64,000 nucleotides of DNA from positions 40,044 to 104,043 of the forward strand of contig CAIJXG010000081.1 of assembly GCA_903824505.1 (NCBI GenBank), given 5' to 3'. Below are positions 39,001-45,000 of the stretch, piece by piece. Within the stretch, counting starts at the first letter, position 1; each line of letters begins with the position of its first letter. This DNA is from an uncultured Pseudomonadota bacterium. Its GTDB lineage: Bacteria; Pseudomonadota; Alphaproteobacteria; UBA9219. The position numbers are program-made.

Positions 39001-42000
39001 GTGGTGTACGAAGATCCATGGCTTGCCGGCGGCCATAACGGCCTGTCGAATAGCGAGGATCCTCAAAAGCCCGAAGATCCGATGCCACGCGTGGCGGCAT
39101 TGCGGGCCCAAATGAATGAATACGGGCTTCAAAAGACGCCGATCGTTATGGCGGGGGGAGTCTGGTGGCTTTCGGAATGGGAACATTGGTTGGACAATGT
39201 AACCATCGGCCCCGTCGCTTTTCAATTTGGCACGCGACCGCTTCTGACTCAGGAAAGCCCTATTTCAACGGCATGGAAGGAGCGGCTTCGGACTCTAAAA
39301 AAAGGCGATGTGTTTCTGAATCGCTTCTCGCCAACGGGATTCTATTCTTCGGCAGTCAATAACGCGTTTTTGCAAGAGCTGAAAGAACGGTCAGAACGCC
39401 AGATTGCCTATACACATGAACAAGTCGGCGCCCATACCGAAAGCTTCAAGGTTGGTGTCGTGGGCGCGCCTGTTTTCATCACCTCGGCCGATAGAGCTCG
39501 TATGCAGGCTTGGCAGGCGCAGGGCTTCACTAAAGTGCTCCGCACACCGGATAGCACGCTGATTTTTGTGACGCCAGATCGCGCGAAAGAGATCATTGCG
39601 GATCAGACAAACTGTATGGGCTGTCTGTCGGCCTGCGCCTTTTCGAATTGGTCACAGAACGAAAAGGGAACAACAGGCCATAAGCCGGATCCGCGTTCTT
39701 TCTGCATTCAGAAAACGCTGCAAAGCATCAGCCATGGCGGCGATGTCGAGAGCGCCTTGATGTTTTCGGGCCACAACGCCTATCGCTTTGCGCAGGATCC
39801 CTTCTATACGAACGGCTTTATCCCGACCGTTAAGCAACTTGTCGAACAGATTTTAACGGGGTTCTGAGGGGGGGTGATTTTGTGTGCCCTGATCTGAAAA
39901 AAGGTTAAAATTGTGCCGCGTCACAGTATATCTCTCGCGCCCATGAAATATGATGTCATCGTCATTGGCGGCGGCCATGCGGGGTGCGAGGCGGCCGCTG
40001 CTTCGGCGCGGGTGGGCGTGCGCACGCTTCTGATCACCCATAAGGTCGAGACGTTGGGTGAAATGTCCTGCAATCCTGCCATTGGCGGGCTTGGCAAAGG
40101 CCATTTGGTGCGCGAGGTGGACGCGCTGGACGGGCTCATGGGGCGCGTGGCCGATGCGGCTGGTATCCAGTTTCGCGTTCTGAACCGCAGCAAGGGGCCT
40201 GCTGTACGTGGCCCTCGCGCCCAAGCCGACCGGAAATTGTATCGACAGGCGATGCAGGCAGTTCTTTTCAATCAGCCGAATCTGGACATTCTGGCGGCCT
40301 CGGCCGAGGATCTTCTGACCGATGCAAGCGGTTCAATCACGGGCATCGTCACGGGCGATGGGGCTGAAATCCGCGCCGGAGCCGTTGTGCTCACAACCGG
40401 AACCTTTCTGCGCGGTTTGATCCATCTGGGTGAGGAGAAAACACCGGCCGGACGTTTTAACGAGCCTCCTTCACGGGGATTAAGCGTCGCCCTAGAACGT
40501 TTGGGCTTTCCTCTAGGGCGGCTGAAAACAGGAACGCCCGCGCGGTTGGATGGACGCACGATCGACTGGGCGGGGCTAGAGATGCAACAGGGGGACCCGA
40601 ACCCCGAAGCTTTTTCGACTCTGACAACCACCCTGTCGAATCGTCAAATCGCCTGCGGTATTACTTATACGACTCCGCGTGGGCACGACGCGATACGGGC
40701 CAATTTGCACCGCGCTCCTATGTATTCCGGCCAGATTACGGGCACGGGGCCGCGCTATTGCCCCTCGATTGAAGATAAAGTTGTGCGCTTCGCCGACAAA
40801 GAACGGCACCAAATTTTCCTAGAACCCGAAGGGCTGGATGATCCCACGATTTACCCGAATGGGATTTCGACCTCTCTGCCGCGCGATGTGCAGGATGTTT
40901 TTATCCGCTCGATCATCGGATTGGAGAAAGTCAAAATTCTCCGCTACGGCTACGCGATTGAATATGATTTTTGTGATCCGCGCGAACTCACACGCACCCT
41001 TGAAACCAAGCGCGTGCAGGGTCTGTTCTTTGCGGGACAGATCAACGGCACAACAGGGTACGAAGAAGCCGCCGCCCAAGGTCTCATTGCGGGGCTGAAT
41101 GCCGCGCTGAAAACGGCTTTGATGGCGCCTTTCACCTTGGATCGCTCCCAAGCCTATATTGGCGTGATGATCGATGATCTGATCACGCGCGGCACGAATG
41201 AGCCGTATCGCATGTTCACCTCTCGTGCCGAATACAGGCTCACGCTACGGGCCGACAACGCGGATCAAAGGCTGACGCCGCTAGGGCTTGAGGCCGGATG
41301 TATCACCACAATCCGCCGTGACTCGTTTGCGGCTAAGAAAGAAGCGCTGGACTCTGCCCGCGCCTTGCTGGATTCCTGCCGCGCCTCACCGAATAAACTC
41401 GCGGCCCAAGGGCTACATGTGAATGCGGATGGGGTTGTGCGGTCGGCCTTTGAGCTTTTGTCCTATCCCGATCTCTCACTTGCGCGTTTAGCCTCGGTCT
41501 GGCAGGAGCTGGCCGCCATCCCGCCGCATATAGCACAGCAATTAGAAAGCGACGGGTTGTATGCGGGGTATCTCGACCGCCAGAACGAGGATATCCGCGC
41601 CTTTCGCAAGGACGAAGCGCTGCAGCTTTCTGAACATACAGATTTCGATTCCATTGGCAGCTTATCGGCCGAGATTAAACAAAAACTGAAACAGATCCGC
41701 CCCCCTACGCTCGGCGCGGCTTCGCGCATTCAGGGCATGACCCCCGCCGCGCTGGTATCCCTGTTGCGTTATGTGAAAAAAGAAGGGGCCTGAAGGACAG
41801 GGCTGCCGTAAGCAACCTGTTAAGAAATACCCCTCACGGCTCGTTTCTTAAGGCTGCTTGGCAGACTTCTCGCGGGGGATATTCTCTGATAAGAGAGGGG
41901 ATCTCATGCGCCCTTTTCTAAGAAAACCCCATGCCCAAACGCACCGACCTTTCCTCTATTTGCATCATCGGCGCTGGCCCTATCGTGATCGGACAGGCCT

Positions 42001-45000
42001 GCGAGTTTGACTATTCCGGCGTGCAGGCCTGCAAGGCGCTGCGGCAGGAAGGTTACCGGATCATCCTGATCAATTCCAATCCGGCGACGATCATGACCGA
42101 TCCGGATATTGCCGATGCCACTTATATCGAGCCTATTACGCCCGCGACGGTGGCCAAGATTCTGGAAAAAGAGAAACCCGACGCTGTATTGCCCACCATG
42201 GGCGGACAGACCGCCTTGAATACCGCGATGGCACTGGCCAAAGACGGCACCTTCGATCGGTTGGGGATCGAGCTGATCGGCGCAAATCGCGCCGCCATTG
42301 AAAAAGCCGAGGATCGCGCTCTGTTCCGCGATGCGATGGCGGGGATTGGCCTGTCCTGTCCTAAAAGCGTTGTGGTGAATACGCTGGAACAGGGGATGGA
42401 AGCCCTGATCCCCATTGGGTTGCCCGCGATTATCCGGCCCAGCTTTACGCTTGGCGGCATGGGGGGCGGCATTGCCTATAACAAACAAGAATTCGCGGAG
42501 ATTGTCGCAAGCGGCCTTGCTGCGAGTCCGGTTCAGGAAGTTCTGGTTGAGGAATCCGTCCTCGGCTGGAAAGAATATGAAATGGAAGTTGTGCGGGACC
42601 GCAAGGATAATTGCATCATTATTTGCTCGATCGAAAATGTGGACCCTATGGGCATCCATACGGGCGACAGCATGACCGTCGCGCCCGCTTTGACCCTGAC
42701 GGATAAAGAATATCAAATCATGCGCAATGCCTCGATCGCGGTTTTGCGTGAGATCGGCGTGGATACGGGCGGATCGAACGTCCAATTCGCGATCAACCCT
42801 GCTGATGGGCGGATGATCGTGATTGAGATGAATCCGCGCGTGAGTCGATCCTCCGCGCTCGCCAGTAAAGCGACGGGTTTTCCCATCGCCAAAGTCGCCG
42901 CGCGGCTGGCGGTCGGCTATACGCTGGACGAGCTTAAAAACGACATTACAGGCGACACGCCGGCCGCGTTCGAGCCGACGATTGATTATATCGTCACGAA
43001 AATTCCCCGCTTTGCCTTCGAAAAGTTCCCGCGTACCGAGCCTCTTTTGACTACCGCGATGAAGTCGGTGGGCGAGGTGATGGCGATTGGCCGCACCTGG
43101 CATGAGTCGCTGCAAAAAGCCCTGCGGGGGCTTGAAATTGGCCTGACGGGTCTGAATGAAATGCGAACGCTGGAGGGGGCCTCACTCAGCGACATTCATG
43201 CGGCGCTGGCCAAACCCACGCCGGACAGGATTCTGGTCATCGCCGATGCACTGCGGCGCGGGATGAGCGTGGCTCAAATCGCCGCTCTTTGTAAATTCGA
43301 TGTTTGGTTTCTGGACCGGATCGCTGAAATCGTCACGGTGGAGGCCGAGATAAGGTCAAGCGGCCTGCCCACAACCGCACCGGACATGCAAAGGCTCAAA
43401 CGCATGGGATTCAGCGACGCGCGGCTAGCCCAACTGACGGGACGCAAAGAGTCCGAGGTCGCCGCCACCCGCCGCGCCTTGGGTGTTAGGCCCGTCTATA
43501 AACGTATCGACACCTGCGGGGCCGAATTCGCCTCCCAAACGCCGTATTTGTATTCGACGTATGAGGCAATCTGAAGATCACGATTGAGCCTTAGGCCTTT
43601 TGTGCTAGGCTGGGGCTCGATGGTATGAAAGCTGAAAAGGGAGACTTTCCATGAATCTCGATCAAACGAAACAACGGATGGACGGGGCTTTAGAAGCGCT
43701 GCGCAAGGAATTTGGCGGGCTGCGAACGGGGCGCGCCTCGACCAGCCTTTTGGATCCCATTCATGTGGATGCTTATGGAAGCCCTCTGCCGCTGAACCAA
43801 GTTGGGACCGTCGGCGTGCCGGAGCCGCGTCTGTTGACGGTCCAAGTCTGGGACAAGGGATTGGTTAAAAGCGTCGAGAAGGCCATCCGCGATGCGGGGT
43901 TGGGTCTGAACCCGCAACCAGATGGGCAGATGATTCGCGTGCCTTTACCAGAGCTAAGCCAAGAACGCCGTCAGGAATTGGTCAAAATCGCAGGTAAATA
44001 CACCGAACAAGCGCGGATTGCGGTACGGAATGTTCGCCGCGATGCGATGGACGGGATTAAGAAAGAAAAGCCCTCGGAAGACGAAACCCAAGCCTTGAAC
44101 GAAAAAGTTCAGAAGCTGACCGATGAGACCATTAAAAAAATTGACGATCTGTTGGCCCATAAAGAAAAAGAAATCATGCAGGTTTAGGCATGTCTTGGCT
44201 TTCCGCTCCCCATGCCGCGTTTGTGTTAGCCGCCTATGGGCTTGTGGGCGGGGTGTTGATTTTTTTTGCCGCGCTGACGTTTTGGCGCGCCCATCAGGTC
44301 AATAAAGAGGCGAAGGAAGTGGAATTAGAGATGCGGCATGACTCGTAAAAAAGCACGGCTTGTGATGGTTTTGTGTTTGCTGGCGGGATCGGGAACGGCG
44401 GCGGCTTTGACGCTTATTGCGCTTAATCGCAACGTCTCTTATTTCAGGACGCCAACCGAAATTGTCATGGGAATCTATCCCGAGAAAGACTCAGGGCATG
44501 CTTTTCGGCTGGGCGGTTTGGTGGAAACAGGCAGTCTGAGCCGCGACGAAGGGGCGATCACCTTCCGCGTAACGGACACAAAAAACGCCCTTTCCGTTCA
44601 TTATGAAGGCATTGTTCCTGATTTGTTCCGAGAGGGGCAGGGCGTGATTGCGGAAGGCAAGATGGATGAAGCGCAAACCTTTCAAGCTACGCTGCTTCTG
44701 GCCAAACATGACGAAAAATATATGCCGCCGGAAGTCGCAAGCGAATTGAAGAATGCCGGGCATCCGGTTGAAGGAACCAAAGAAAGCAAATAATCCATGT
44801 CCCAAAAATCTTCCTTCGCGGGTGAACGGATTGCCAAACTTCTGGCGCGTGTCGGCGTTTGTTCCCGTCGCGAGGCGGAAAGGCTGATCATCGACGGGCG
44901 CGTGACGGTGGATGGCAAAGTTCTGGCCTCGCCTGCCCTGAATGTCACGGATTCCAGCCGGATCACTGTTAATGGAAAACCGATTGGGCTGCGCGAGGAA

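Follow-up and report, generated by a model that had tools for sequence, protein, structure and literature searches.

A probable natural split of carB, the gene for the large subunit of carbamoyl-phosphate synthase, in an uncultured alphaproteobacterium

We have analyzed a stretch of 64,000 nucleotides (hereafter the window; contig CAIJXG010000081.1, positions 40,044 to 104,043) from an uncultured alphaproteobacterium of the UBA9219 lineage. In it carB, the gene for the large subunit of carbamoyl-phosphate synthase (CPS), is present as an open reading frame (ORF) for the N-terminal half of the protein, here called carB-N. The gene and its immediate surroundings are as follows.

39913..41793, + strand: mnmG (gidA), identified by the Pfam GIDA families; the upstream neighbour, at the place where relatives have carA.
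41794..41930, + strand: upstream spacer of carB-N, 137 bp, read from the sequence; relatives have carA or a small ORF here.
41931..43574, + strand: carB-N, N-terminal half of the CPS large subunit; ORF of 547 aa with an ATG start.
43575..43650, + strand: spacer between carB-N and frr, 76 bp, with no trace of a C-terminal half; it holds an imperfect hairpin that lacks a T-run, and also GGGAG, the Shine-Dalgarno sequence of frr.
43651..44187, + strand: frr (ribosome recycling factor), identified by PF01765 RRF; the downstream neighbour, at the place where relatives have the C-terminal half of carB and greA.

The carB-N protein ends in YSTYEAI, with the stop codon at 43572-43574, and the ATG of frr follows at 43651 after the 76-bp gap that the initial annotation had given. 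Pfam places the CPSase_L_D1 domain at residues 8-124, the CPSase_L_D2 ATP-grasp domain at 128-334 and the CPSase_L_D3 oligomerisation domain at 425-503 (PF25596, PF02786 and PF02787, all well over their cut-offs). The NCBIfam CarB equivalog NF003671 is matched with 935.8 bits, exceeding its cut-off of 599, and residues 1-545 correspond to positions 1-542 of the 1058 in this profile. The score against TIGR01369 (844.7 bits) falls below the cut-off of 1027 because carB-N spans only half of that model. A phmmer search of the PDB aligned residues 1-545 with residues 1-548 of Escherichia coli CarB (999.7 bits). The E. coli protein comprises a carboxyphosphate domain (1-400), an oligomerisation domain (401-552), a carbamoyl-phosphate domain (553-933) and an allosteric domain (933-1073) (PMC6245113), and carB-N therefore ends at a domain boundary. 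Its product is predicted to consist of the carboxyphosphate-synthetic ATP-grasp unit and the oligomerisation domain, and is thus CPS.A-like in domain content; the polypeptide stops after profile position 542, without the second, carbamoyl-phosphate ATP-grasp unit and without the MGS-like allosteric domain. In all of this the half-length carB of the initial annotation is borne out.

No remnant of a C-terminal half, of carA or of greA was found in any frame of the 64-kb window by tblastn with the C-half, CarA and GreA of a close relative; the sole match to the C-half was carB-N itself, at the paralogous level of 33% identity. The window thus has neither a carA nor a frameshifted continuation of carB, as had been claimed. 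The DNA following the carB-N stop shows a mere 4-nt resemblance (GCAA) to the old linker, which we judge to be chance. An identical carB-N protein (P0001) occurs on 5 contigs, from NCBI and ENA together, with the neighbours seen in the window kept. A mechanically called ORF of 403 aa lies antisense to carB-N (41904-43115, - strand); it is rich in Arg, Gly and His, resembles low-complexity sequence and is almost certainly no gene.

The orthologous loci of relatives, which the initial annotation had suggested checking, have a fused carB in canonical carA-carB-greA surroundings. In the closest relative with DNA (locus L001), whose N-half is 83.5% identical, the order is a NUDIX gene on the - strand, carA, a small ORF, carB and greA. 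The car loci L087/L088, L093 and L094 resemble this one; among the relatives carA, with or without the small ORF, lies directly upstream of carB, and greA downstream. Identity between carB-N and the N-halves of the fused CarB in L001, L087 and L094 is 82-84%, and by sequence comparison carB-N nests within alphaproteobacterial CarB and is not a member of a CarB-like paralogue family. The junction between the halves in fused relatives reads Y(S/C)(T/S)YE, then 8-10 hypervariable residues, then CE(A/S). The alignments show that carB has been broken in this short hypervariable linker, between YSTYE (E. coli 548) and the CEA motif (E. coli 550). Among the representatives in GTDB the N and C parts are contiguous and in one frame at 78 of 78 loci. 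In a broad sample of metagenomes 75 of about 77 informative loci are fused; the exceptions, L102 and L148, shift frame inside the N-half and not in the linker, and are probably errors or decay. These counts agree with the earlier remark that a split carB is uncommon in Proteobacteria. A frame change is also seen inside the carB C-half of L001, at about 4660-4680, where the protein P0002 ends in out-of-frame residues; it is either a sequencing error or the mark of a decaying gene.

The complementary gene, for which the initial annotation had proposed a search of the rest of the genome, was found in bin ERZ1426852. The reconstructed L001 C-half, compared with a collection of 5.8 billion proteins, identified P0128, a stand-alone, intact C-half of 534 aa that starts (M/V)TTLPS and is 82% identical to the probe. 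P0128 contains the second ATP-grasp unit and the MGS-like allosteric domain, and would thus be a CPS.B-like subunit. It matches positions 543-1050 of the 1058 in NF003671, a range exactly complementary to the 1-542 of carB-N, and residues 550-1053 of E. coli CarB (phmmer, 858.7 bits). Placed end to end, the tail AI of carB-N and the head (M/V)TTLPS of P0128 give the 8 residues that the linker has in the closest fused relatives. The sequences of both ORFs were taken from the DNA. Like P0001, P0128 is seen on 5 contigs (NCBI and ENA), with the same pattern of provenance. Its gene, carB-C, lies between dnaN and a tRNA gene, beyond which come Ham1, MltA and cmk, on a 66,230-bp contig of ERZ1426852 and also at locus L002; the dnaN/carB-C arrangement is the same on 5 contigs from several assemblies, L002 included. 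The tRNA gene (L002 4382-4454, - strand; Rfam, 63 bits) is situated about 160 bp downstream of carB-C, and a 103-aa ORF called over it is probably spurious, since it overlaps the tRNA gene.

Several lines of evidence place the two halves in one genome. Bin ERZ1426852 contains, besides the 66,230-bp contig with P0128, a 106,268-bp contig with genes of the window (rpe, 61900-62550, and neighbours). The longest contig carrying the exact carB-N protein is also 106,268 bp, and the bin with the window locus therefore also holds P0128. The tetranucleotide composition of L002 correlates with that of the window at r = 0.965; 11.7-kb chunks of the window itself give 0.926-0.978, and other loci 0.883 or less. 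The window and L002 also share a dispersed repeat.

20964-21083 (+ strand), 38282-38400 (- strand) and about 59131-59237 (+ strand) in the window, and about 6598-6715 in L002: dispersed repeat of about 120 bp, with terminal inverted repeats TATACTCGGG ... CCGAGTATA.

The 31-nt core of this repeat is present three times in the window (none expected by chance), once in L002 and in none of 93 other loci. The repeat folds into a long hairpin (z = -2.57) and had no match to an Rfam family; from its sequence it looks like a lineage-specific element resembling miniature inverted-repeat transposable elements (MITE) or repetitive extragenic palindromes (REP), lineage-specific since the core is absent from the 93 loci of relatives. 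The copy at 38.3 kb begins immediately behind the stop codon of ccmC and overlaps with the start called for an NMO-like gene. When the N-half of the window and the C-half of L002 were concatenated, they grouped with the fused L001 and L094 at 99% bootstrap, with a normal branch length. Taken together, bin, composition and repeat are strong evidence, at the level of the bin, that both halves lie in one genome.

Both halves have been conserved to about the extent of their fused counterparts. Of 296 alignment columns that are at least 97% conserved among 77 relatives, carB-N keeps 289, as against 286-293 of about 294 in the fused controls; in P0128, 214 of 216 such columns are kept. Distances to outgroups reveal no acceleration of rate in either half. 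The ratio of nonsynonymous to synonymous substitution rates (dN/dS) is 0.06-0.10 in carB-N and 0.09-0.14 in the C-half. Pairs of fused genes give values in this range as well, although dS is saturated and the ratios are rough. In the alignment, positions R129, R169, E215, H243, Q285, E299, N301 and R303 (E. coli numbering) are all identical in carB-N, and R715, H788, Q829, E841, N843, R845 and R848 are present in P0128; we take these to be ATP and metal ligand residues of E. coli CPS. By these measures purifying selection acts on both halves, which are conserved and intact. With an intact complementary C-half in the same bin, and both halves apparently maintained by selection, the initial annotation's reading of a natural split, not a pseudogene, is upheld.

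We consider it likely that carB-N is one of two genes that jointly encode the large subunit of a glutamine-dependent carbamoyl-phosphate synthetase, as the result of a natural split. In E. coli CPS a twofold axis relates the two synthetase units, and CarA touches only the carboxyphosphate and oligomerisation domains (PMC6245113); the domain types that contact CarA are all within the N-half. The carB-N and P0128 polypeptides would associate non-covalently through the pseudo-twofold interface seen between the halves of E. coli CarB, and with CarA would form a heterotrimeric CPS similar to the CPS.A/CPS.B/GLN enzyme of Aquifex aeolicus. The carB-N product would make carboxyphosphate and carbamate, and the C-half would phosphorylate carbamate to carbamoyl phosphate and carry the allosteric control.

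Stand-alone C-halves occur in four lineages of the immediate clade of the window, the window species included, and the linker break is seen in both lineages of that clade whose N-half is also visible (L003 and ERZ1426827). In L003 the order is carA, an N-half of 547 aa ending in YSTYETA, an ORF of 138 aa with an N-terminus resembling a signal peptide, a C-half of 530 aa, and greA. The gene table of ERZ1426827 gives carA, a Gp49/HTH toxin-antitoxin pair, an N-half of 550 aa, a HigB/HTH pair and a C-half of 535 aa. In L092 a SLOG-family gene overlaps the start of a C-half of 529 aa, followed by greA, on a contig without the N-half. In ERZ1426810 an insertion sequence (DDE_Tnp_1 / HTH_Tnp_4) comes right after carA, and another relative has extra ORFs of 184 and 704 aa between carA and carB (both from gene tables). 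The car locus of these relatives gathers small genes of mobile type, such as toxin-antitoxin pairs on either side of carB-N, between it and carA and between it and carB-C. A metagenome scan with P0128, whose listed matches were mostly distant relatives, gave no further clean linker splits among those matches. No clean stand-alone N-half of about 550 aa was found in the best 150 cluster representatives, a weak result, since proteins of this kind may be concealed by the clustering at 50% identity.

In a bootstrapped neighbour-joining tree of C-halves L092 pairs with the fused P0131 (100%) and L003 with the fused P0129 (98%), and the window species falls inside the fused L001/P0121-P0125 group (90%); the tree of concatenated halves agrees. 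A single ancestral split common to L003 and the window species was rejected, the window species grouping with the fused L001/L094 (99%) and L003 with the fused P0129 (98%). Since all outgroups are fused and the split lineages each pair with fused sisters, at least three independent fissions in the clade make a more parsimonious history than a single fission with several later re-fusions, exact and in frame, and we lean slightly towards this reading of what are neighbour-joining trees on modest data. The fission in the window species would probably have begun with the insertion of DNA into the carB linker, as is still seen in relatives, after which genome rearrangement would probably have dispersed the two halves. 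We give about an even chance to the broader proposal that the linker is a recurrent fission site, with at least three recent independent events, foreign DNA being involved each time (between the halves a HigB/HigA pair or a small ORF for a secreted protein, or next to the C-half a SLOG gene), and with the window species as the dispersed end state. If this were true, mobile cassettes could drive the splitting of an essential enzyme's gene at the level of domains, with function retained, and the split CPS of Aquifex and the methanogens could equally be derived and not a relic from before the fusion.

Around carB-N the window has few signals of expression. The hairpin in the spacer between carB-N and frr is not significant (z = -1.65), no terminator-like site was found between the two genes, and Rfam had no match near carB-N. 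One weak sigma-70-like match precedes the gene (TTGGCA-16-TATTCT, 41858-41885); with 1.5 such matches expected by chance, it does not speak for a function. At 36809-44793 a cytochrome c maturation operon is broken: ccmB and ccmC are followed by the NMO-like gene, mnmG, carB-N and frr, and then by ccmD and ccmE. The four genes inside the operon are co-oriented and unrelated to ccm. The usual neighbourhood of frr is pyrH/uppS, and here frr is away from both. The window points to extensive local scrambling of gene order. Elsewhere in the window (641-3616, 9973-11325, 13477-16411, 17952-20736 and 29814-32826) there are genes of secretion and lifestyle, for ATPase and platform proteins of the type II secretion system/type IV pilus type, the curli protein CsgG, a curlin-repeat protein, a Dot/Icm-type DotH/IcmK with a TrbI-like protein, and pyruvate formate-lyase with its activase. 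This gene content hints at an alphaproteobacterium that is anaerobic-capable and possibly host- or prey-associated. Some of the relatives carry the NCBI label 'Bdellovibrionales'.

A number of observations weigh against the proposal of a functional split enzyme. The first ATP-grasp unit has a Gly-rich loop, GG(S/T)GGG, in which carB-N shows the substitution T177M (codon 42459-42461), unique among 78 N-halves. No promoter or Shine-Dalgarno signal above chance was found ahead of carB-N. The dN/dS values, as noted, are made rough by saturation of dS. What links the halves is a metagenome bin together with composition and the repeat, not a closed genome. The source genome was absent from the GTDB-representative collection, where the best match to a chimeric probe had 70% identity; this probe joined P0128 to the N-half's least-conserved parts, with the aim of finding both loci in one assembly. 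The word-prefiltered protein search gave best-120 lists without any CarB longer than about 960 aa, and the absence of a full-length protein there is uninformative, full-length CarB of about 1080 aa being abundant in other searches. The search for carA that the initial annotation had recommended did not find the gene: its absence from the window stands, and the carA of the species was not located by tblastn of the window or by following four candidate CarA proteins (P0278, P0333, P0248 and P0275), all of which come from other organisms with a fused carB. The missing carA says little, because the metagenome-assembled genomes (MAGs) of this dataset may be only 40% complete.

These observations have to be set against three other explanations. 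Were carB-N a decaying remnant, carbamoyl phosphate would come from a full-length carB elsewhere, or else the pathway would be in the course of being lost. The lack of carA in the window and for the species would fit such a case, as would the heavily rearranged gene order exemplified by the interrupted ccm operon, and the protein searches, unable to list a full-length CarB, leave room by their silence for a full-length copy. Another bin of the same study, ERZ1426633, does have a fused carB of 1080 aa; however, the corresponding locus L004 correlates in composition at only r = 0.849, against 0.93-0.98, and probably belongs to another species. The state of the gene itself speaks against decay: there are no frameshifts or stops, 289 of 296 conserved columns are kept, dN/dS is like that of functional fused orthologues, the protein is identical on 5 contigs and has not accelerated relative to outgroups, and the intact complementary C-half is in the same bin. 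We regard a remnant as very improbable. A chimeric join in assembly, or the co-binning of a C-half contig from a different organism, is more improbable still. It is true that all the data are metagenome assemblies, and that the threshold for MAGs was only >40% complete and <5% contaminated (PMC8121793), but carB-N with the same neighbours and dnaN/carB-C each recur on 5 contigs, the latter in several assemblies; composition and the shared lineage-specific repeat tie L002 to the window; and in relatives the linker is cleanly split within single contigs. In addition, the independent run ERR4195047 matches the last 2.1 kb of the window (61870-64000) at 100% identity, a match that does not reach the carB-N junction, and the strain therefore recurs across samples.

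The N-half might also act without the C-half, as a homodimer performing both phosphorylations or in some other ATP-grasp role, and the C-half likewise alone. For this it can be said that CPS.A and CPS.B of A. aeolicus, when isolated, each catalyse both ATP-dependent partial reactions (PMC6022934), and that a CPS with a single synthetase unit has been reported from Methanobrevibacter smithii, a report known here as reference 42 of the same paper. Moreover, the two genes are unlinked, stand in unrelated operon contexts and need not be co-regulated. The half-specific conserved residues are nevertheless kept at the level of fused orthologues, selection shows no sign of having been relaxed or redirected, and the allosteric domain is in the C-half only. 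In A. aeolicus, full glutamine-dependent synthesis requires the 1:1:1 complex (PMC6022934). Independent action of the halves is in our judgment decidedly improbable, and two genes encoding one large subunit remains the preferred reading.

A split CPS large subunit as such is already known; what appears to add interest here is the unexpected lineage and a split that is derived and apparently recurrent. Until now split CPS has mainly been a curiosity of deep-branching thermophiles and methanogens, sometimes taken as a picture of the ancestral enzyme before fusion. The present case is a recent split, nested among fused proteobacterial orthologues and with evolutionary intermediates kept in sister lineages. 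It offers a natural experiment on how an enzyme of two-fold pseudo-symmetry, with a substrate tunnel inside it, tolerates breakage of its chain, and it bears on gene fission as a process that may start by insertion of cargo into a linker, with later dispersal of the pieces. Automated annotation will label such genes as 'partial' or as pseudogenes, and pyrimidine and arginine biosynthesis will then be wrongly scored as incomplete.

Compared with the canonical fused CarB of E. coli and other Proteobacteria (PDB 1BXR, 1JDB), the two products together keep the four domains, their colinear order and all of the residues that we assume to be ATP and metal ligands, whereas the chain is broken between E. 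coli positions 548 and 550, the genes are on different contigs and the carA-carB-greA context has been lost. The split relatives L003 and ERZ1426827 have the same linker break after YSTYE, with N-halves of 547 and 550 aa, and the C-halves of L003, ERZ1426827 and L092 are 529-535 aa; in L003 and ERZ1426827, however, the halves still adjoin with cargo between them, while those of the window species are fully dispersed. Methanogens such as Methanocaldococcus jannaschii also have two half-size carB genes, but these organisms are archaeal and the genes are adjacent there; no paper documenting the methanogen split was retrieved from the open-access literature. The Francisella carB1/carB2 were considered as split genes and rejected, being transposon alleles.

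The closest precedent is CPS.A/CPS.B/GLN of A. aeolicus, in which the large subunit likewise consists of two polypeptides, the two homologous synthetase halves. The half genes of Aquifex are also non-adjacent. The Aquifex enzyme has been described as a heterotrimer, and its arrangement read as ancestral (PMC3917532). The 1:1:1 assembly of the halves with the glutaminase into an active enzyme belongs to Aquifex; for the window species it serves as a working model. The hosts also differ, a mesophilic freshwater alphaproteobacterium here and a deep-branching thermophile there. Lastly, the split described here is clearly derived, its halves being 82-84% identical to fused orthologues and nested among them with 99% bootstrap.

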